Origin: a bacterium
GTDB lineage: Bacteria > Patescibacteriota > Patescibacteriia > HK-STAS-PATE-3
Assembly: GCA_043800725.1 (NCBI GenBank)
Contig: JAZDMR010000011.1
Location: 21,369 to 85,368 of the forward strand
DNA length: 64,000 nucleotides
Reading direction: 5' to 3'
A program made the position numbers and the translations under genes. Shown here piece by piece: positions 7,356 to 47,633 of the stretch. Position 1 is the first letter of the stretch. Every line of letters begins with the position of its first letter. The notes beneath the pieces were generated by a model that worked only from the letters and a program-made list of their open reading frames with translations, made no database searches and was not told where the DNA came from.

Positions 7356-7431
7356 GCGCCGGTAGCTCAATGTTTGGTAGAGCGGCCGATTCTTAATCGG
7401 CAGGTTGTGGGATCGAGCCCCACCTGGCGCA
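7356..7431 (+). tRNA. tRNA-Lys(CTT)
   Basis: acceptor GCGCCGG/CTGGCGC, D-arm GCTC..GAGC, anticodon loop TTCTTAA, T-arm GTGGG-ATCGAGC-CCCAC, discriminator A, no encoded CCA. Confidence 0.85.
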
Positions 7432-7454
7432 CAGTTTATCATTACAGATCGGTT

Positions 7455-7533
7455 TCGGGGGGTGGAGTTGCGACTGGTACAACGTCAAGGCAGTCTGTCC
7501 TGACGACACTTGCCGAGCTCGAGGGCCCCCCGA
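7455..7533 (+). repeat. tRNA-like structured spacer element, copy 1 (TCGGGGGG...CCCCCCGA closing stem)
   Basis: about 75% identical to the element at 7674-7751; contains a D-arm-like GTTG-CGACTGGTA-CAAC hairpin. Confidence 0.6.
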
Positions 7534-7582
7534 TCTATCTTCTCCGAAGTTTCTACATGGAGTGGCGCTACAGTTTTAGAGG

Positions 7583-7668
7583 GCTGACGTAGCTCAGATG
7601 GTAGAGCATCGGCAAGTACTGGAAGGGAAAGCCGAGGGTCACGAGTTCGAGTCTCGTCGTCAGCTCCA
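7583..7668 (+). tRNA. tRNA of undetermined identity with a 17-nt anticodon loop (10-nt insertion)
   Basis: perfect acceptor (GCTGACG/CGTCAGC), D, anticodon-stem (TCGGC/GCCGA) and T arms plus encoded CCA, but the loop between the anticodon stem halves is AAGTACTGGAAGGGAAA. Confidence 0.55.
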
Positions 7669-7673
7669 GTTTG

Positions 7674-7751
7674 TCGGGGGCTAAAGTTACGACAGGTATA
7701 CCGTTGGGGCAATCTGCCCTGACGCCACTTGCCGAACTCGATGCCCCCCGA
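7674..7751 (+). repeat. tRNA-like structured spacer element, copy 2
   Basis: homologous to 7455-7533; TCGGGGG...CCCCCCGA closing stem. Confidence 0.6.
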
Positions 7752-7771
7752 CCAGATCTTTCAAAGTATTC

Positions 7772-7890
7772 GCGGGAATAGCTCAGTGGCTAGAGCGGCT
7801 GACTTTTAATCAGTAGGTTGGGGGTTCTCCGCCACCGAAAGTAGGAATAGTTGGCGGATCAGCCTCAAGCCGAGAGTCCCATTTCCCGTA
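7772..7890 (+). tRNA. tRNA-Lys(TTT) carrying a roughly 43-nt insertion in the T-arm region
   Basis: acceptor GCGGGAA paired with TTCCCGT (G1-U72), canonical D-arm and anticodon loop CTTTTAA; after GGGGGTTC a hairpin (TCCGCCA..TGGCGGA) insert precedes GAGTCCCA and the acceptor 3' strand. Confidence 0.45.
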
Positions 7891-40332: not shown

Positions 40333-40842
40333 ATGAAGTGTCCGGTTTGCCATTATAAAGACAGTAAGGTAATTGATTCGCGCTTAGCAACAGATGGATT
40401 TGCCATAAGAAGGCGCAGAGAGTGCCATAAATGCACTTTTCGCTTCTCTACCTACGAAGAGGTAGAATTACTCAACCTGACTGTGCTAAAAAGAGATGGT
40501 CGCAGGGAGTCCTATATCAGATCTAAGCTGGAAAGCGGCCTAAAAAAGGCATTTGAGAAGCGCCCAATCACAACCGAGGAGCTAACCAGGCTAATTAACA
40601 GAATAGAGAGGGATATTCAGAAAAAGGGCGGCAAAAAAAGCAGTCAGGAAGTAAAAACTAGCGAAATTGGTGAGATCATTATGCGTCATTTAAAGCGGGT
40701 TGATCCTGTTGCTTACATTCGTTTTGCGTCTGTTTATCGGTCATTCAAGGATGCTGAAACTTTCCAAAAAGAGCTGAAAGTACTGGTTAAAACCCCGAAA
40801 ACTAATAAAGACCGGCACCAAAAAATCCGGAAGAAGAAATAA
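40333..40842 (+). CDS. nrdR: transcriptional repressor NrdR
   Basis: 'MKCPVCHYKDSKVIDSR...CHKCTFRF' zinc ribbon plus ATP-cone. Confidence 0.9.
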   Translation: MKCPVCHYKDSKVIDSRLATDGFAIRRRRECHKCTFRFSTYEEVELLNLTVLKRDGRRESYIRSKLESGLKKAFEKRPITTEELTRLINRIERDIQKKGGKKSSQEVKTSEIGEIIMRHLKRVDPVAYIRFASVYRSFKDAETFQKELKVLVKTPKTNKDRHQKIRKKK

Positions 40843-40874: not shown

Positions 40875-43814
40875 ATGCGGTCGTCCGAGCCAGAAATTCA
40901 GCCAAAATCTCTCCCCTCAAAATCAAACCAGAGCACCAATGACGCTTTGTTGGAAAAGTTATTGGAGCAATCGCCCAAACGTAATGGAGAGAATAAAGGC
41001 TTATCCTGGCAAAGGTTTTTTTCGCGCGGCAATGTCCATCCTTTTGACGAGATTCAGTGGGAAAAAAGAACCGCAGTAATCACTGATGCCAATGGCAAGG
41101 TGGTTTTTGAGCAGAAAGACATCGAAGTGCCTAATTTTTGGTCGCAGAACGCTACCAATATTGTGGCGTCCAAGTATTTTTATGGCGATTCGGAAAAAGG
41201 CCAAAGAGAGCAATCGGTCCGCTCCCTGATTGACCGAGTTACCCAGACGATAACCGACTGGGGCAAAGAAGATAATTATTTTATAAGCGAGTCAGATGCC
41301 AAGATATTTTATGACGAACTGACTTGGCTGATTACCCATCAATATTTGACATTCAATAGTCCGGTCTGGTTTAACTGCGGCGTACACCGTTATGATCGCG
41401 GTTCTGGCGCCGGACGCTGGTATTGGAATAAAAACAAAGGCATTGTAGAGCTGGCTGAAGATGATTACATTCATCCTCAATGTTCAGCCTGCTTTATTTT
41501 ATCGGTTGAAGATTCAATGGATTCGATTCTGAATCTGTCTAAGACCGAAGGCATGATTTTTAAATTCGGATCAGGCGCAGGTTCCAATTTATCGCCGATT
41601 CGCTCCTCTCGGGAAAGGCTATCTGGCGGCGGAACTGCTTCCGGTCCGGTTTCTTTTATGAAAGGCTATGATGCGTTTGCCGGAGTAATTAAATCAGGCG
41701 GTAAAACGCGCCGGGCTGCCAAGATGACCATACTTAATATTGAACATCCGGATATAACTGATTTTATATTATCAAAATCAAAAGAAGAGGAAAAAGCCTG
41801 GGCATTGATTGATGCGGGTTATGACGGAGCGATTGATGGAGAGGCTTATGGTTCAATATTCTACCAAAATGCTAACCACAGTGTCCGAGTTACCGATGAA
41901 TTCATGAAGGCAGTTGAAAACGATGCTCACTGGCAGACTCGATCTGTTCAGGGTGGTGAAGTGGTTGATACTTATAAGGCCCCAGAACTGCTGCGTATGA
42001 TGGCAGAAGCCACTCACAAGTGCGGAGATCCAGGACTTCAATTTGATAGCATTATTAATGACTGGCATACTTGCATTAATACCGACCGCATTCATGCTTC
42101 CAATCCGTGTTCAGAGTATATGTTTCTAAATAATACTGCCTGCAATTTAGCTTCCATTAATTTGCTCAAGTACCGGACCAAGGATGGCGAATTTGATTAT
42201 GAGAAGTTCCGACAGTCAACCAAGGTGCTGATTACAGCTATGGAAATAATAGTTGATAATGCCAGCTATCCTACCAAGGAAATTGCTCAGAGCAGCCACA
42301 TCTTTCGTGCTCTGGGTATTGGTTATGCTAATTTGGGAGCATTACTCATGTCTTTGGGTTTGCCTTATGACAGCAATGAAGGTCGTGCTTACGCCGCAGT
42401 AATTACGGCTTTATTGACTGGCCAAGCCTATTCTCAGTCAGCCCTGATTTCTGAGCAGACCGGTCCATTTCCAGGCTATGCGGAAAATAAAGAACCAACC
42501 CTAAGAGTTATACAGAAGCATCGGGATGCGGTTAAAGGGATCAATCAGAAGCTGATTCCTAGCGGAATGTGGGAATCGGCTAGAGATGTTTGGGATGAAG
42601 CAGTTGAGTTAAGCGCCAAACATGGCTTACGCAATGCTCAAACATCATTATTAGCCCCTACTGGCACGATTGCTTTCATGATGGATTGTGATACGACCGG
42701 CGTTGAGCCAGACATTGCCTTGGTTAAGTATAAGAAGTTGGTCGGCGGCGGCTACATGAAAATGGTTAATATGACCGTGCCTTTGGCTCTTAATCGGTTA
42801 GGCTACACTGATACTCAGATCGAGGAAATCAAGACTTTTATTGATTCCAACGACACCATTGAGGGAGCGCCTCATTTGAAGGATGAGGATTTAGCGGTTT
42901 TTGATTGCGCTTTCACGGCAAAAAACGGCAAACGCACCATTCATCATATGGGACACATCAAAATGATGGGCGCAGTCCAGCCATTTTTATCCGGAGCAAT
43001 TTCCAAGACCGTAAACATGCCTACTGAATCGACAGTCGAGGATATTATGGATGCCTATATTCAGGGCTGGAAGTTGGGCTTGAAAGCTTTGGCTATATAC
43101 CGCGATGGGTCGAAGAGAACCCAGCCCCTAAATACCGCCGTATCTGACGATAGTAAAAAAATAAGTGATAAAAAAGGAACTGCTGAACCGAAACCCTACC
43201 GGCATCGCCTGCCTGATGAGCGTCAATCAATCACTCATAAATTTGAAATAGCCGGACACGAGGGCTATATCACTGTCGGCTTGTATCCCGAAGGACAGCC
43301 CGGTGAATTGTTTATCACTATGAGCAAAGAAGGCAGCACCTTATCGGGCATTATGGATTCATTTGCCACCTCTATCTCCCTGAATCTGCAATACGGAGTG
43401 CCCTTGAAAATATTAGTAAAGAAGTTCACGCATCAAAGATATGAACCAGCCGGCTTTACCCGAAACCCAGACATACCAATAGTCAAATCGATTACGGATT
43501 ATATTTTTCGATGGCTGGCAATAAAATTCCTAGACCCCAATGAGGCGGCTGAAGTGCACAATAGAACTTTGGTTGATCAAAGCAATGGCTTATCGTTGTC
43601 AGCTAATCAGGATGCCAAAACAGCTGAAGCAACTACCAAGACGGCCAGACCGCTAACCGAAGAAGGCACTGATATTCAGGGTATTCAGCTGGAACTAGCC
43701 ACTATCCAGAATCAGACAGACGCTCCGCCTTGCGATTTTTGCGGGGCTATCATGGTTCGTGGCGGTTCATGCTACAAGTGTTTGGAGTGCGGCAATACCA
43801 GCGGCTGTTCTTAA
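40875..43814 (+). CDS. nrdJ: adenosylcobalamin-dependent (class II) ribonucleotide reductase
   Basis: 979 aa; active-site 'ASNPCSEY', 'LLAPTGTI'; C-terminal CxxC..CxxC tail. Confidence 0.85.
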   Translation: MRSSEPEIQPKSLPSKSNQSTNDALLEKLLEQSPKRNGENKGLSWQRFFSRGNVHPFDEIQWEKRTAVITDANGKVVFEQKDIEVPNFWSQNATNIVASKYFYGDSEKGQREQSVRSLIDRVTQTITDWGKEDNYFISESDAKIFYDELTWLITHQYLTFNSPVWFNCGVHRYDRGSGAGRWYWNKNKGIVELAEDDYIHPQCSACFILSVEDSMDSILNLSKTEGMIFKFGSGAGSNLSPIRSSRERLSGGGTASGPVSFMKGYDAFAGVIKSGGKTRRAAKMTILNIEHPDITDFILSKSKEEEKAWALIDAGYDGAIDGEAYGSIFYQNANHSVRVTDEFMKAVENDAHWQTRSVQGGEVVDTYKAPELLRMMAEATHKCGDPGLQFDSIINDWHTCINTDRIHASNPCSEYMFLNNTACNLASINLLKYRTKDGEFDYEKFRQSTKVLITAMEIIVDNASYPTKEIAQSSHIFRALGIGYANLGALLMSLGLPYDSNEGRAYAAVITALLTGQAYSQSALISEQTGPFPGYAENKEPTLRVIQKHRDAVKGINQKLIPSGMWESARDVWDEAVELSAKHGLRNAQTSLLAPTGTIAFMMDCDTTGVEPDIALVKYKKLVGGGYMKMVNMTVPLALNRLGYTDTQIEEIKTFIDSNDTIEGAPHLKDEDLAVFDCAFTAKNGKRTIHHMGHIKMMGAVQPFLSGAISKTVNMPTESTVEDIMDAYIQGWKLGLKALAIYRDGSKRTQPLNTAVSDDSKKISDKKGTAEPKPYRHRLPDERQSITHKFEIAGHEGYITVGLYPEGQPGELFITMSKEGSTLSGIMDSFATSISLNLQYGVPLKILVKKFTHQRYEPAGFTRNPDIPIVKSITDYIFRWLAIKFLDPNEAAEVHNRTLVDQSNGLSLSANQDAKTAEATTKTARPLTEEGTDIQGIQLELATIQNQTDAPPCDFCGAIMVRGGSCYKCLECGNTSGCS

Positions 43815-43850: not shown

Positions 43851-44423
43851 TTGGTTGTTTCGCAACGCTATTTAATCTCAACGATTTTGAAAAAAAGTCT
43901 AAAAGGATTAACAATTGTATATGTTGGCCAAGGCAAAGGTAAGACCACGGCCGCGGTTGGTTTGGCTGTTCGAGCCCGAGGCTGGGGCCAGCGAGTTCTG
44001 TTTTTACAGTTTATCAAAGAAGCCAAGTGGCCCTCGGGCGAACGAGCTATGCTCAAGAAGCTGGGCGTTCATGTTTGGGTAATGGGCCAAGGCTTTGTCA
44101 GGATTTTAAACGACCAGAAGCCTTTTACTGTTCATAAACAAGCTGCTCGTCAGGCGCTTAAGAAAGCCCAAGAAGCCATTCGTGGAAAATATTATGATGT
44201 TGTGATTTTGGATGAAGCAATATCTGCAATTGAAGAAAGGCTGATTACACAAACTGATATCGTCCGATTAATAACCAAAAAGCGGCCCAAGATCACCCTG
44301 GTATTAACCGGCCATACTGTCTATCCCATGATTATGAAAAAAGCCGACCTGATCACGAACATGAAAAAGATTAAACATCCGTTTGATAATGGTATAATGG
44401 CTAAGAAAGGGATTGATTTTTAA
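43851..44423 (+). CDS. cob(I)alamin/corrinoid adenosyltransferase (CobA/CobO/BtuR family)
   Basis: P-loop 'GQGKGKTTAAVGLAVRA', 'VVILDE' Walker B; adjacent to the B12-dependent RNR. Confidence 0.8.
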   Translation: MVVSQRYLISTILKKSLKGLTIVYVGQGKGKTTAAVGLAVRARGWGQRVLFLQFIKEAKWPSGERAMLKKLGVHVWVMGQGFVRILNDQKPFTVHKQAARQALKKAQEAIRGKYYDVVILDEAISAIEERLITQTDIVRLITKKRPKITLVLTGHTVYPMIMKKADLITNMKKIKHPFDNGIMAKKGIDF

Positions 44424-44434
44424 AGGTCATTTTT

Positions 44435-44845
44435 ATGCCCCAAGAGCAATTTATTTCAATTCGCGCAATTATCACATACGGCAACAAGATCCTGCTGGTC
44501 CGAGAATCCAAGGATTATACCGATGGAACCAATCCTGGAAAATGGGATGTACCGGGCGGCCGGGTGTCTTTGGGTGAAAAGCCCTATGATGCACTGCAGC
44601 GGGAGGTTAAAGAAGAAGTAGGATTGGATATTGAAGTAGGGCGGCCCGTTTGGGTGGATGATTTTCGGCCTACTATTGAGGGTTTTACCAGACACATTGT
44701 GGTGGTTTATGTGGCGTGCAGCAGCAAATCAGACAAGGTAGTTTTAAGCGAGGTGCATGATGGATTCAAATGGCTGACCAAGGCCGAAGCTGTAAAACTA
44801 CCTTTGATGGACTCAGTAGCTCGGGCTTTGGCAGCCTTGGATTAA
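44435..44845 (+). CDS. NUDIX hydrolase
   Basis: Nudix box 'GGRVSLGEKPYDALQREVKEEVGL'. Confidence 0.8.
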   Translation: MPQEQFISIRAIITYGNKILLVRESKDYTDGTNPGKWDVPGGRVSLGEKPYDALQREVKEEVGLDIEVGRPVWVDDFRPTIEGFTRHIVVVYVACSSKSDKVVLSEVHDGFKWLTKAEAVKLPLMDSVARALAALD

Positions 44846-44900
44846 AAAAGTAAAGGGCATTAAAAAGGGAATTGATTATTAATTTAAAAAGGATTTTCAT

Positions 44901-45317
44901 ATGCCAGGCGAAATATCTACCCCACCTGAGGCAAGACTCTCACAAGAAACAAATAACGAAAAAGGACCTGAACAATATGCCAACTTTTGGGCGTCATTAA
45001 CTATCCAAGAGCAGCAATTAGCTGAAGCGCTGTTAAACAGACAAGTCCCAAATAGTGATACTGCGTATATGGAAAAGGATCTGGACCCGGAAAAAGTAAA
45101 ACATTTGACCTTAGTTGATCTTGGGAGCGAATTTAATGCCGTTGCCACGACAATTACTCGCGGCATTGGAACAAGCGTACGGGTAGAAGGCAGTGATGAG
45201 CCAGTCTTGGTTGATAAAGAAAATTGGCGTGAATACGGCCCTAGGGGCAAGTGGGCGTCAGACTGGATGCCACATCTTGAATCATTGAAGCAAAAAATAG
45301 AAGCTTTTTTAGTGTGA
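44901..45317 (+). CDS. hypothetical protein
   Basis: balanced composition; preferred over the overlapping S/P/C-rich antisense ORF. Confidence 0.4.
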   Translation: MPGEISTPPEARLSQETNNEKGPEQYANFWASLTIQEQQLAEALLNRQVPNSDTAYMEKDLDPEKVKHLTLVDLGSEFNAVATTITRGIGTSVRVEGSDEPVLVDKENWREYGPRGKWASDWMPHLESLKQKIEAFLV

Positions 45318-45374
45318 ATACTTGGATTTGACGAATACAGCTGACTTGAGTTAAGATGCAAACCTGACAATTTA

Positions 45375-45500
45375 TTAAATGGGAAAGGAGTGCAATTCTC
45401 CTGCGGTCCCGCCGCCGTACAGCCGGCCCCCAGTCCCGACGTAAAGTCGGGACAAAGATAAATCCTTCGTGGAGAGGTTGGCCGTATGATTAAGGGCCGA
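45375..45500 (+). ncRNA. cobalamin (B12) riboswitch candidate
   Basis: 'GGGAAAGGAGTGCAATTCTCCTGCGGTCCCGCCGCCGTA' matches the cobalamin-riboswitch core (GGGAA..GGTG.AA..CC..GCGGTCCCGCC[ACTG]); downstream hairpins CAGTCCCGAC/GTCGGGAC; precedes the DUF4430 and ECF-S genes. Confidence 0.6.
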
Positions 45501-45541
45501 TTTCCTCCATGTTGATTGGGGGGATGTTTATTATTTAAGTA

Positions 45542-46027
45542 ATGACTAATCATATGTCTGACAAAAAATTCACCCGACTTCATGGCTGGCTAGCCGCCGT
45601 AATGGTGGTTGCCGCAATTATTACCGGCAGCTTTGTTCGCATGTCGAACTCGGTCGGCGATAATATTAATAACGACCTGCTAATAAAAAGACCGGCGGTA
45701 TTAGGCGCCGCGGCGATTGAGGGGCCGGCTGCCCACCTGGTAGTTGCTTTAGAAGAAAGGCCATTTATTGATAATGATTATGCTTTGGAAGATGATGATA
45801 CCATCTATAGCTTTTTGGATCGCGTGATACAGGAAAGAGAGGGCTTAACTTTTCAGACTAAACAGTATGATTTTGGTAAGCTTATTACCAATGTGGCTGA
45901 TTTTGAAAACGGCAATGAAGGCTACTACTGGCTTTACTCTGTCAATGGAGAAGACGCCAATGTCAGCATTGATAATTATATTTTGGAGGGTGGCGAGTTG
46001 ATTGAGCTGCGCTATGCGCCAAGCTGA
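45542..46027 (+). CDS. DUF4430-family extracytoplasmic protein (B12-uptake associated)
   Basis: TM anchor; C-terminal 'YWLYSVNGEDANVSIDNYILEGGELIELRY' matches the DUF4430 'W.Y.VNG.....Y.LKDGD.V.W.Y' signature. Confidence 0.65.
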   Translation: MTNHMSDKKFTRLHGWLAAVMVVAAIITGSFVRMSNSVGDNINNDLLIKRPAVLGAAAIEGPAAHLVVALEERPFIDNDYALEDDDTIYSFLDRVIQEREGLTFQTKQYDFGKLITNVADFENGNEGYYWLYSVNGEDANVSIDNYILEGGELIELRYAPS

Positions 46028-46605
46028 TGCTTAAAAAGAATAAAACAATTATTGCTGTTGTTTTTGTAGTGTTTGGCGTTTTATTGCGGCTAGTTCCACA
46101 TCCGGCTAACATGACCCCGATAGCTGCGGTTGCTTTATTTGCCGGTGTCTACCTTAGCCGGCGTTGGTCAATGATTATCCCCATGGCCATTATGATGATA
46201 AGCGACCTGCTAATGAGCTTTGCTTTTTTTCGTAACCTGATTCCCTGGGGCGCGAATGGTGCAGGCTGGCATAATTTGGCTCCGATAGTTTGGCTGTGCT
46301 TTGCCTTGGTTGGCTTGATCGGCTGGTGGGTGGCCAAGCATAAGTCAGCCAAGAATATTCTTCTGGGAAGCTTAGCAGGCTCAGTGGTATTTTACCTGGT
46401 TACTAATTGGGCGGTCTGGGCCTTTGGGACAATGTATCCGGCCAATTTTGCCGGCTTGCTGGAATCCTATACCATGGCTCTGCCCTTTTTCCGCAACAGC
46501 CTGGTGGGCAATATTGCTTATACTACAGTGCTTTTTGGTCTCTATGAATCCGTCCCAGTATTTGGTAAAATGAGGAAGCGTAAAGAAATCACCGTTAGCA
46601 ATTAG
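46027..46605 (+). CDS. putative ECF-transporter S component (CbrT-like, cobalamin)
   Basis: 192 aa, about 5 TM helices, translationally coupled (ATGA overlap) to the DUF4430 gene, downstream of the riboswitch. Confidence 0.45.
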   Translation: MLKKNKTIIAVVFVVFGVLLRLVPHPANMTPIAAVALFAGVYLSRRWSMIIPMAIMMISDLLMSFAFFRNLIPWGANGAGWHNLAPIVWLCFALVGLIGWWVAKHKSAKNILLGSLAGSVVFYLVTNWAVWAFGTMYPANFAGLLESYTMALPFFRNSLVGNIAYTTVLFGLYESVPVFGKMRKRKEITVSN

Positions 46606-46607
46606 TA

Positions 46608-47489
46608 ATGCCTGAATACCAGCGATACTATCGCTATCAAGACAAAGGCTCGGTTACCAATTCCAAACTCGTCCGTTGGCTGGTTTATATAATTGTTTTA
46701 TTTGTGATAATTTTATTGATCCGCGCTTGTTTGGGCGGTGGCGGAAAGCAGACAGAGGGCGAGCTAACCAATGAATCAACAGAGGCTGAACAGGTAACGG
46801 ATGAAAATAGTAATACTAACAGCAGCGATCAGGAAACAGATACTAAAGCCAGTATTGCCACAGTAGAATCGTTTGATGTGGCCAGTCAGTGCGACGGTAT
46901 TATTTCGCTTTATGGCAGCGAGCCAAAAATTGCTTTGACTTTTGGCGGACGCGGCTCCGGCGCCAATGTTGATGAAATACTTAAAATTTTAAGCGATTCA
47001 GGCGTGCCAGGCAGCTTTTTCTTTACCGGGGTATTTGCCAGAAATAATCCTGAGGTGGTGACCAAGATCAATCAAGCCGGTTTTCGGGTTTATAACCAAA
47101 GCGATTCTCATCCTGACTTTGAAGATTTGACAGAAGATGAGATGTTGCAGGAGCTTGAGCTGGCCGATGAAGAAATCAGTAAATTAACGGGCTTGACCAC
47201 CAAACCTTTCTTCCGCCCACCCTACGGCTCGGTAACTGAAGCGATCGCTGATGTGGTTATTTCAGCCGGGTATTGTTCAGTCACCTGGACAGTCGACGCG
47301 TTAGATTGGAGTTCGGGCGTGGCCAGTAGCGAAGTATATGACCGGGTCATGGAACGCGCCCAGGACGGAGCGATTGTTTTGATGCATATCGGCAGTGATC
47401 CATTGCCCAGCGCATTGCCCGACATTATCACTGACTTAAGAACAGAGGGGTACGAACTAGTCAGCCTGGCTGATTTAGTCGGTTCATAA
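46608..47489 (+). CDS. polysaccharide deacetylase (NodB-homology) family protein
   Basis: 'TFGGRGSGAN', 'IVLMHIGS', NodB motifs; N-terminal TM. Confidence 0.75.
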   Translation: MPEYQRYYRYQDKGSVTNSKLVRWLVYIIVLFVIILLIRACLGGGGKQTEGELTNESTEAEQVTDENSNTNSSDQETDTKASIATVESFDVASQCDGIISLYGSEPKIALTFGGRGSGANVDEILKILSDSGVPGSFFFTGVFARNNPEVVTKINQAGFRVYNQSDSHPDFEDLTEDEMLQELELADEEISKLTGLTTKPFFRPPYGSVTEAIADVVISAGYCSVTWTVDALDWSSGVASSEVYDRVMERAQDGAIVLMHIGSDPLPSALPDIITDLRTEGYELVSLADLVGS

Positions 47490-47515
47490 AGAGTTATTGT
47501 GCGCCCAACCACAAA

Positions 47516-47537
47516 GGCGAAGATGACCATCTTCGCC
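47516..47537. terminator. bidirectional hairpin GGCGAAGAT-gacc-ATCTTCGCC between convergent genes
   Basis: perfect 9-bp stem between the stops of 46608-47489(+) and 47634-47888(-). Confidence 0.5.
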
Positions 47538-47633
47538 TGCGTTAAGTTATACTTGCCCAAAACATCCCTCGCAGGAGAAAAAAGGGACGCCTAGCAAGAG
47601 TGTCCCTTGAGTTTATCGATCTATGAAGGATCG

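Follow-up and report, generated by a model that had tools for sequence, protein, structure and literature searches.

A predicted vitamin B12 salvage locus with a compact cobalamin riboswitch and a DUF6580 membrane protein in a Patescibacteria-type genome

We analysed a 64-kb stretch of a Patescibacteria-type (Candidate Phyla Radiation [CPR]) genome (GenBank assembly GCA_043800725.1, contig JAZDMR010000011.1, positions 21,369 to 85,368; hereafter, the window), in which a group of genes and a regulatory RNA appear to serve the uptake of vitamin B12 (cobalamin) and its use in ribonucleotide reduction. CPR bacteria have tiny genomes and no B12 synthesis, and many of them rely on a ribonucleotide reductase (RNR) that requires B12. 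The source of the vitamin, in hosts or in communities, is therefore a real physiological question. All window coordinates given below refer to the + strand, and loci designated by L numbers (L001 and so on) are stretches of DNA fetched around homologs of the window's DUF6580 protein.

The locus begins with genes for NrdR (40333-40842) and, just downstream, for the class II, adenosylcobalamin (AdoCbl)-dependent RNR NrdJ (40875-43814; Pfam Ribonuc_red_lgC, 458 bits; Ribonuc_red_2_N, 83.5 bits; TSCPD, 35.7 bits). NrdJ is the B12 consumer of the module, and its position is syntenic in relatives. As a first-pass annotation of the window had stated, the next gene (43851-44423), preceded at 6 nt by the Shine-Dalgarno sequence AAGGAGG, encodes a corrinoid adenosyltransferase: its product matches PF02572 over the full length (190.1 bits against a cut-off of 25.7) and is of the CobA/BtuR type, predicted to convert imported cobalamin to AdoCbl. 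Because its scores on two NCBIfam cobA equivalog models fall below the respective cut-offs (159.6 versus 185 and 146.5 versus 167.75; the models include TIGR00708), this CobA is a divergent member of the family. Beyond a NUDIX hydrolase gene and an orphan open reading frame (ORF), a 224-nt intergenic region (45318-45541) holds a promoter-like element and a cobalamin riboswitch, and is followed by genes for a DUF4430 protein, a DUF6580 membrane protein, and a polysaccharide deacetylase. The start codon of the DUF6580 gene and the stop codon of the DUF4430 gene overlap by one base (TGATG). In the closest relatives, the order NrdR-NrdJ-CobA-NUDIX-(DUF4430)-DUF6580-deacetylase is syntenic.

The 192-aa membrane protein encoded at 46027-46605 belongs to PF20221 (DUF6580; 167.3 bits against a cut-off of 27), the only Pfam family that it matches at E <= 0.01; PF12822 was not matched. 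We found 634 homologs, all with PF20221, and at least 580 genomic loci. The protein had been described as a CbrT-like substrate-binding component (S-component) of an energy-coupling factor (ECF) transporter with five transmembrane helices. The helix count has to be revised, as the AlphaFold model (mean pLDDT 92.7, pTM 0.87) has about six. The kinship with CbrT survives as an S-component fold and a remote profile match, but not as membership of one family: residues 11-132 of CbrT match PF12822 (ECF_trnsprt, 43.7 bits) and do not match DUF6580. A single-sequence search of the Protein Data Bank (PDB) found no solved relative of the DUF6580 protein. When a profile of 48 DUF6580 sequences was searched against the PDB at E <= 10, the sole match was 6FNP_A (CbrT; E = 1.4e-4), which comes from the ECF-CbrT vitamin B12 transporter of Lactobacillus delbrueckii (PMC5997447). 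The best PDB matches of the model in Foldseek are RibU, a generic S-component, BtuM, PanT, and ThiT (TM-scores of 0.46-0.62), with the highest TM-score (0.58/0.62) obtained for BtuM with hydroxocobalamin (8OVV). From these comparisons, DUF6580 is a separate S-component-like family that is a member of neither the CbrT nor the BtuM family, and its six-helix, S-component-like modelled fold makes it a predicted cobalamin transporter. Several points weigh against this assignment: the Foldseek E-values are weak (0.24 to 6), CbrT is outside the top structural matches, the DUF6580 profile finds no BtuM entry in the PDB at E <= 10, and the literature that we searched contains no experimental work on any DUF6580 protein.

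The link of DUF6580 to B12 rests on more than the window locus. In a survey of 80 DUF6580 loci with single-sequence searches over 6 kb on either side, DUF4430 genes occur at 44 loci at least, NrdJ at 18, and CobA at 13. Riboswitches of the cobalamin clan (RF00174, RF01482, or RF01689) were found at Rfam gathering thresholds, on the same strand as the DUF6580 gene, at 21 of 40 loci, which were partly chosen rather than random (6/14 in the batch with the least selection). A stringent regular-expression search for the core recovered 4 of the 80 loci, a strong under-count relative to Rfam, and was not used for frequencies. The operons of some diderm metagenome-assembled genomes (MAGs) tie the family to B12 in another setting. 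At L015 and L073, a riboswitch is followed by a TonB-dependent receptor gene and then by DUF6580, and in an Ignavibacteria operon (L060, 1941-10249), a riboswitch (111.8 bits) precedes genes for DUF5074, a TonB-dependent receptor, Uma2, DUF6580, and MetH, the B12-dependent methionine synthase. DUF5074 may be a BtuG-like surface binder of B12. DUF6580 is the sole candidate for an inner-membrane transporter in all three operons. At two further loci, AdoCbl-II riboswitches (RF01689) lie 3' of the DUF6580 gene on the same strand (L004, 2463-2536; L012, 7055-7131) and presumably control another gene.

Transport by DUF6580 might be energized in either of two ways, and this is the least certain step of our reconstruction. 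BtuM of Thiobacillus denitrificans (PDB 6FFV/8OVV) is a solitary S-component-like B12 transporter, and BtuM occurs in organisms without ECF modules, in a context adjacent to B12 receptors (PMC6072759). DUF6580 resembles BtuM in size and fold and, in diderm MAGs, likewise adjoins a TonB-dependent receptor without ABC transporter parts (BtuM context: PMC6072759). The two differ in that a cysteine of BtuM ligates cobalt (PMC6072759), whereas the 48-sequence DUF6580 alignment has no Cys among its invariant or nearly invariant columns, and in that BtuM is mostly proteobacterial, whereas DUF6580 is found mainly in Patescibacteria. Residues R21, H25, N28, and D60 of the DUF6580 protein are invariant. 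The first-pass annotation had pointed to an ECF ATPase/permease as something to look for; we found no EcfA/EcfA'/EcfT module in the 64-kb window, whose one ABC ATPase has an FtsX-type permease as its partner. Around the 80 surveyed DUF6580 genes, an ABC ATPase-like ORF lies within 6 kb at two loci and is adjacent at none. The literature searched contained nothing that links CPR or Patescibacteria to ECF or B12 transport. By analogy with BtuM, we lean somewhat towards DUF6580 working without a dedicated ECF module.

The most serious competing explanation is that DUF6580 is a true ECF S-component that docks, like the group II S-component CbrT, on a shared EcfA-EcfA'-EcfT module encoded elsewhere and imports B12 at the expense of ATP. 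CbrT, seen in the ECF-CbrT complex, is the only solved structure that the DUF6580 profile detects, and the fold of DUF6580 matches S-components. Group II S-components are normally encoded apart from the ECF module, so ECF dependence is compatible with a missing local module, and the absence of a module from the window and from the 6-kb flanks is uninformative on this point. Our ECF search covered the 64-kb window, part of a contig of at least 177 kb, and a module elsewhere in the genome is possible, which weighs against solitary operation. However, the DUF6580 protein is outside the Pfam family of CbrT, and the fetched DNA showed no ECF gene. In diderm MAGs, moreover, DUF6580 takes the place of BtuM or BtuCDF beside the TonB-dependent receptor in operons that lack ABC components, which is the context described for solitary BtuM (PMC6072759). 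We consider ECF-dependent import by DUF6580 less likely than solitary operation, although it deserves real weight.

The nearest characterized counterpart of the locus as a whole is the nrdJ-cbrS-cbrT-pduO cluster of L. delbrueckii, which encodes the ECF-CbrT transporter (PMC5997447). Both loci have a small S-component-type protein near a class II RNR and an adenosyltransferase, and in both a second small gene lies beside the transporter gene. They differ in the family of the transporter (PF12822 for the CbrT fragment and PF20221 for the window protein) and in the adenosyltransferase, which in the window is of the CobA/BtuR type rather than the PduO type. Unlike the L. delbrueckii cluster, the window has its uptake genes under a riboswitch and shows no ECF module.

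The second small gene of the window (45554-46027) encodes a 157-aa protein of the DUF4430 family, as had been proposed from its signatures, WLYSVNGE and YILEGGELIELRY, both of which are present; the match to PF14478 reaches 37.4 bits (cut-off, 23.8). Translation from an alternative start codon at 45542 would yield 161 aa, but the start at 45554 is the most likely one, as the NCBI annotation has the 157-aa form and this form aligns with the start of the L086 ortholog. A single-sequence search of the PDB gave nothing useful. A profile of 23 DUF4430 domains from the fetched loci, searched against the same database, matched haptocorrin (4KKI; E = 1.8e-8), intrinsic factor (E = 2.7e-6), the transcobalamin β-domain (5NO0; E = 5.4e-6), and transcobalamin (E of ~1e-4). 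In all the entries matched (4KKI, 2PMV, 3KQ4, 5NO0, and 2BB5), the match falls on the C-terminal B12-binding β-domain. A C-terminal DUF4430 has been reported for proteins of the transcobalamin family (PMC4350170). The N-terminus of the window protein consists of KKFTR and an 18-residue hydrophobic stretch, with no lipobox, which by the positive-inside rule points to a membrane-anchored protein whose domain (about residues 45-157) faces the outside. The likeness to transcobalamin, intrinsic factor, and haptocorrin is thus a profile-level homology across the β-domain, whereas the bacterial protein would consist of a β-domain alone, attached to a membrane anchor and lacking the α/α-toroid. On this homology, we predict that it is a B12 capture protein.

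Transcobalamin combines an α/α-toroid domain with a DUF4430 β-domain, and larger proteins at other CPR loci may have a bearing on that architecture. Loci of the Magasanikbacteria type (L014, 3809-5996; L018, 3571-5918) encode a 530-570-aa protein between the DUF4430 and DUF6580 genes, with weak Pfam matches to the squalene-hopene-cyclase and prenyltransferase α/α-toroid families. Elsewhere, ORFs of ~900 aa are found (L005, L027, L029, L061, and L065), and at some loci the 900-aa proteins have an N-terminal DUF4430-like domain. These 530-570-aa and 900-aa proteins look like a split or rearranged bacterial counterpart of transcobalamin.

The intergenic region upstream of the DUF4430 gene had been annotated as a cobalamin riboswitch, which we place at 45376-45535, and the RNA quoted in support, GGGAAAGGAGTGCAATTCTCCTGCGGTCCCGCCGCCGTA, lies at 45381-45419. 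In a permissive scan of 371 nt, RF00174 matches 45337-45452 on the + strand with 30.9 bits (E = 2.9e-6). Scaled to the whole window, the E-value is ~5e-4, which is significant, yet the score is under the curated threshold; because it lies 0.6 bits below the gathering score of 31.5, a whole-window Rfam scan at gathering thresholds reports no cobalamin riboswitch. The core pattern of 33 nt, GGGAA-N4-GTG-N2-ATTC-N4-GCGGTCCCGCC, has a single occurrence in the window even when two mismatches are allowed, and none in 100 dinucleotide-preserving shuffles. The first-pass annotation had named a score under the gathering threshold as grounds for doubting the riboswitch. The score is indeed under it, a shortfall outweighed by homologous leaders with covarying helices.

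We compared the window leader with six alignable leaders, those of L086, L208, L210, and L211, whose DUF6580 proteins are ~55-61 per cent identical to that of the window, and those of L001 and L002 (~47-49 per cent). The L086 and L001 leaders score 36.2 bits on RF00174, over the gathering score. All seven leaders have the GGGAA junction, P5 with a UCCCG loop, P6, a hairpin that adjoins P3 on its 3' side, the invariant linker AAGAYAAA, P13 in the form CCUY-CGNGGA-RAGG, and a last hairpin with a U-rich tract. A 5-bp P4 is present in six of the seven, L002 being the exception; the P4 of L210 contains an insertion of 28 nt (35 nt in place of the 7-nt L4). Since MAFFT put this insertion and an optional hairpin before P13 out of register, base pairs were tallied from an explicit segmentation of the leaders. 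P4 appears as AGGAG/CUCCU, GACGG/CCGUC, or GCCAG/CUGGC, so that both sides change at four of the five pairs, with no mismatches among the six leaders. Across all seven, the third pair of P6 is C-G, U-A, or G-C, and the closing pair of P13 is U-G, C-G, or U-A. This is the covariation pattern expected of a conserved RNA structure rather than of chance or decay, although seven related sequences give weak statistics. Because the homologous leaders share this architecture and these covarying helices, we take the riboswitch to be genuine despite its score; by its sequence and predicted structure, the window leader is a functional-looking cobalamin riboswitch missed by curated thresholds.

Transcription of the leader would start from a promoter-like element at 45328-45357, which consists of a -35 hexamer TTGACG, an 18-nt spacer, and a -10 hexamer TAAGAT (9/12 matches in a promoter scan). 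An element of the same layout, ATTTGACG followed at 17-18 nt by a TAnnnT hexamer, is conserved in L086, L208, L210, and L211. The predicted promoter would give the riboswitch-controlled genes a transcription start of their own. Downstream of it, the aptamer core P3-P6 occupies 45380-45432, identified by the RF00174 match, the unique core motif, and the covariation, and all elements of the conserved core are present (P3-J3/4 with GGGAA, P4 with a 7-nt L4, P5 with a C-rich L5, and P6). The 5' strand of P3, UGG (45380-82), is followed by the J3/4 sequence GAA and by P4 (AGGAG/CUCCU; 45386-90 and 45398-402) with its loop UGCAAUU. P5 (GG/CC) has the loop UCCCG (45407-11), and P6 (GCCG/CGGC; 45414-17 and 45424-27) has four base pairs capped by nothing more than the 6-nt loop UACAGC, making this P6 region the shortest among 123 sequences with the same core. 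The sequence GCCGCCG, previously read as a variant of the B12 box, is the 5' strand of P6, aligns with GCCACUG of L001, and is not a separate B12 box. J6/3 and the 3' strand of P3 (45428-32) complete the core. Next come the hairpin right after P3 (GUCCCGAC-GUAAA-GUCGGGAC; 45433-45453), which in all seven leaders keeps its position with a wholly different sequence, the invariant linker AAGAUAAA (45455-45462), and P13 (CCUU-CGUGGA-GAGG; 45464-45477). The G-rich L13 is a candidate kissing partner of L5: its GGA can pair with the UCC of L5, and in L001 and L002 four pairs are on offer (GGGA/UCCC).

Cobalamin riboswitches of all classes have a P3-P6 junction and an L5-L13 kissing loop in common; Cbl-I members also have a P2 module and a P6 with a long extension, Cbl-IIa members have a small P6 cap, typically a loop, and bind hydroxo- or methylcobalamin, and Cbl-IIb members have a short P6 hairpin and bind AdoCbl (PMC7367189). 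The window leader resembles the Cbl-II riboswitches (Rfam clan CL00101) in its four-way P3-P6 junction, an L4 of T-loop length, a C-rich L5, a P13 with a G-rich loop, the lack of a P2 module, a small P6 cap, and a terminator-type expression platform. It differs from them in a P6 of only 4 bp with a 6-nt loop, in having no P1 that we could find, in the conserved hairpin right after P3 and the invariant AAGAYAAA linker before P13, and in a score just short of the RF00174 gathering threshold. The orthologous leaders of close relatives have a short P6 hairpin of Cbl-IIb-like appearance. Judged by architecture, then, the window and L210 look Cbl-IIa-like and their relatives Cbl-IIb-like. A P1 formed by AUUUAU and AUAAAU, which would join the 5' leader to the region after P3, is possible in the window; it was rejected, as the other leaders do not share it.

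The expression platform can adopt alternative folds. Folded alone (45453-45540), its minimum free energy structure (-28.0 kcal/mol) is an antiterminator hairpin (45468-45511) in which CGUGGAG (45468-74) pairs with CUCCAUG (45505-11) around a small internal hairpin. CGUGGAG comprises L13 and the first base of the P13 3' strand, and CUCCAUG is the 5' arm of an intrinsic terminator, making the antiterminator mutually exclusive with both P13 and the terminator. The terminator (45502-45535), which an independent terminator scan reports as a hairpin at 45502-45524 followed by UGUUUAUUAU, consists of the hairpin UUCCUCCA-UGUUGAU-UGGGGGGA and the U-rich tract UGUUUAUUAUU. To mimic the kissing complex, we imposed P13 and barred L13 from pairing; under these constraints, the fold contains the terminator (-23.2 kcal/mol). 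The final hairpin with its U-tract is present in all seven leaders, and the complementarity between P13 and the terminator arm is comparable in the five close ones (window, L086, L208, L210, and L211; duplexes of -8 to -14 kcal/mol). These modelled folds fit a transcriptional OFF switch, in which ligand and kissing loop would together have to supply ~5 kcal/mol to tip the balance.

Control at the level of translation, through the SD-like GGAGAGG in P13 and short upstream ORFs, is less well supported than termination, which we prefer because the hairpin and U-tract occur in all seven leaders; a translational component may act in addition. Two leader ORFs are present: 45486-45515, which encodes MIKGRFPPC and starts 8 nt past the SD-like GGAGAGG, and 45524-45538, which encodes MFII and ends 3 nt ahead of the first ATG of the DUF4430 ORF.

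Against a functional, ligand-responsive leader stand the sub-threshold RF00174 score and several further observations. There is no convincing P1/P2 of the Cbl-I type, and the Rfam alignment of P1/P2 contains many non-canonical pairs; its 5' strand (45345-45357) coincides with the conserved promoter's spacer and -10 hexamer and is therefore probably not transcribed. The L13 loop CGUGGA offers just ~3 contiguous pairs to L5. An extra 24-40-nt hairpin on P6 in L086, L211, and L208 is absent from the window. The start codon of the DUF4430 gene has no Shine-Dalgarno sequence, making a translational layer of control possible. Finally, the riboswitch is absent in the close relatives L081-L085, L207, and L209: only ~20 nt separate the preceding gene from the DUF4430 gene in L083, L084, and L209, those of the three that were scanned show no cobalamin match at E <= 1, and L081 and L207 have no DUF4430 gene. 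Regulation is thus dispensable, and the cassette of promoter and riboswitch is an insert that varies between relatives while the order of the genes stays fixed. Alternatively, expression of these uptake genes can continue from the nrdJ-cobA unit.

These observations raise the alternative that the leader is a decaying remnant that no longer binds a ligand, and that expression of the uptake genes is constitutive, driven by the local promoter or by read-through. The low score, the distal P6 deleted relative to L086, L211, and L208, the L13 mismatch to L5 relative to L001 and L002, and the dispensable control seen in riboswitch-free relatives are all compatible with decay. Yet the other elements are all intact, from the promoter through P4, P5, P6, and the 3' hairpin to the linker, P13, and the competing antiterminator and terminator, and Cbl-IIa riboswitches normally have a loop-capped P6 (PMC7367189). 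L210, whose leader has diverged elsewhere, retains an equally minimal P6 (loop UGCAGC); the short form has thus outlasted divergence and is no lesion peculiar to the window. The L13 loop CGUGGA, too, is identical in L086, L208, and L211, in which the aptamers are more complete. Loss of function in the window leader is, in our judgement, improbable.

We conclude, with a probability of about three in four, that the locus is a vitamin B12 salvage unit of a B12-auxotrophic Patescibacteria-type genome, organized in two transcription units and working by the following switch and uptake mechanism. The first unit, nrdR-nrdJ-cobA-nudix, would supply the AdoCbl-dependent reductase and the adenosyltransferase that makes AdoCbl from imported corrinoid. 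The second would comprise its own promoter (45328-45357), the compact riboswitch, and the DUF4430, DUF6580, and deacetylase genes. We infer that the leader binds cobalamin and acts negatively. At low cobalamin, it would fold as the antiterminator (45468-74 with 45505-11), and the uptake genes would be transcribed; cobalamin bound at the P3-P6 junction would stabilize P13 through the L5-L13 kissing contact, freeing CUCCAUG, so that the terminator (45502-45535) would form and transcription stop. On the uptake side, the membrane-anchored DUF4430 protein, its transcobalamin-β-like domain facing outward, would capture cobalamin and pass it to the DUF6580 protein, which would carry it across the membrane; the substrate, the hand-off, and the mode of energization of this step are what we infer from homology and context. 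The idea of a coherent B12 uptake and activation system that feeds the class II RNR, already put forward in the first-pass annotation, is borne out by the synteny, by the DUF4430 homology, and by the riboswitches at DUF6580 loci. It is very unlikely that the substrate of the DUF4430/DUF6580 pair is instead not complete cobalamin but, for instance, cobinamide, a different corrinoid, or a metal. The substrate assignment is a prediction, 3U7Z, the only bacterial DUF4430 structure to have been solved, bears the label of a putative metal-binding protein, and cobinamide was among the compounds in the study that reported ECF-CbrT as a cobalamin transporter (PMC5997447), but the window and its syntenic relatives contain no cobinamide-salvage or lower-ligand genes, the only B12-related neighbours are NrdJ and the adenosyltransferase, which both need a complete corrinoid, and the control by a cobalamin riboswitch and the β-domain homology point to cobalamin or close analogues.

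This system is coherent and largely expected; it extends known designs and does not overturn current understanding. It assigns a specific predicted function, cobalamin import, to DUF6580, an uncharacterized and widespread Pfam family, on the basis of remote CbrT homology, the S-component fold, three Rfam classes of cobalamin riboswitches, and NrdJ, CobA, MetH, and TonB-dependent receptor neighbours. It also suggests that bacterial proteins related to the transcobalamin β-domain, but standing alone, probably capture B12, and the sub-threshold riboswitch matters for automated regulon annotation in CPR genomes. More tentatively, and with less than even confidence, we propose that DUF6580 is a third family of small, S-component-like B12 importers beside CbrT and BtuM and is independent of ECF modules. 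In CPR bacteria with a cell wall, it would have the membrane-anchored DUF4430 protein as its capture partner and, in some lineages, an α/α-toroid protein that together with DUF4430 would amount to a split transcobalamin; in diderms, it would replace BtuFCD behind BtuB. Under the same proposal, orthologous leaders of close relatives would alternate between a Cbl-IIb-like P6 with a hairpin and a Cbl-IIa-like P6 with a bare loop, and the form of cobalamin that is sensed may change accordingly.

Three genes within the locus, all passed over in the first-pass annotation, are less clearly connected to B12. The NUDIX hydrolase (44435-44845; PF00293, 70.2 bits) also lies between cobA and the uptake genes in L081-L085, L207, L208, and L211. 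Its best NCBIfam resemblance, under the cut-off, is to a pyrimidine (d)NTP diphosphatase, and it may take part in nucleotide metabolism around NrdJ rather than in B12 handling. The 138-aa orphan ORF (44901-45317), just 5' of the riboswitch promoter, has a plausible ribosome-binding site and no Pfam or NCBIfam match. Its sole match in a collection of 5.8 billion proteins is itself, the syntenic relatives have none, and it is probably outside the B12 system. The polysaccharide deacetylase (46608-47489; PF01522, 79 bits) starts 2 nt past the DUF6580 stop codon, is followed by a terminator-like hairpin at 47515-47538, and is probably co-transcribed with DUF6580. It occupies the same place in relatives with and without the riboswitch, and we know of no B12 role for such an enzyme.

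Two minor features of the window remain to be recorded. The C-terminal tail of NrdJ (43725-43814) is rich in Cys (CDFCGAIMVRGGSCYKCLECGNTSGCS) and resembles a zinc ribbon. Far upstream, a cluster of tRNA genes lies at 7356-7833. One of them (7583-7668) is overlong, with 17 nt in the Rfam alignment at the 7-nt anticodon loop, and is called by ARAGORN as an 86-nt tRNA-Thr(AGT); ARAGORN does not report a fourth Rfam tRNA match (7772-7833; 62 nt, 37.2 bits).

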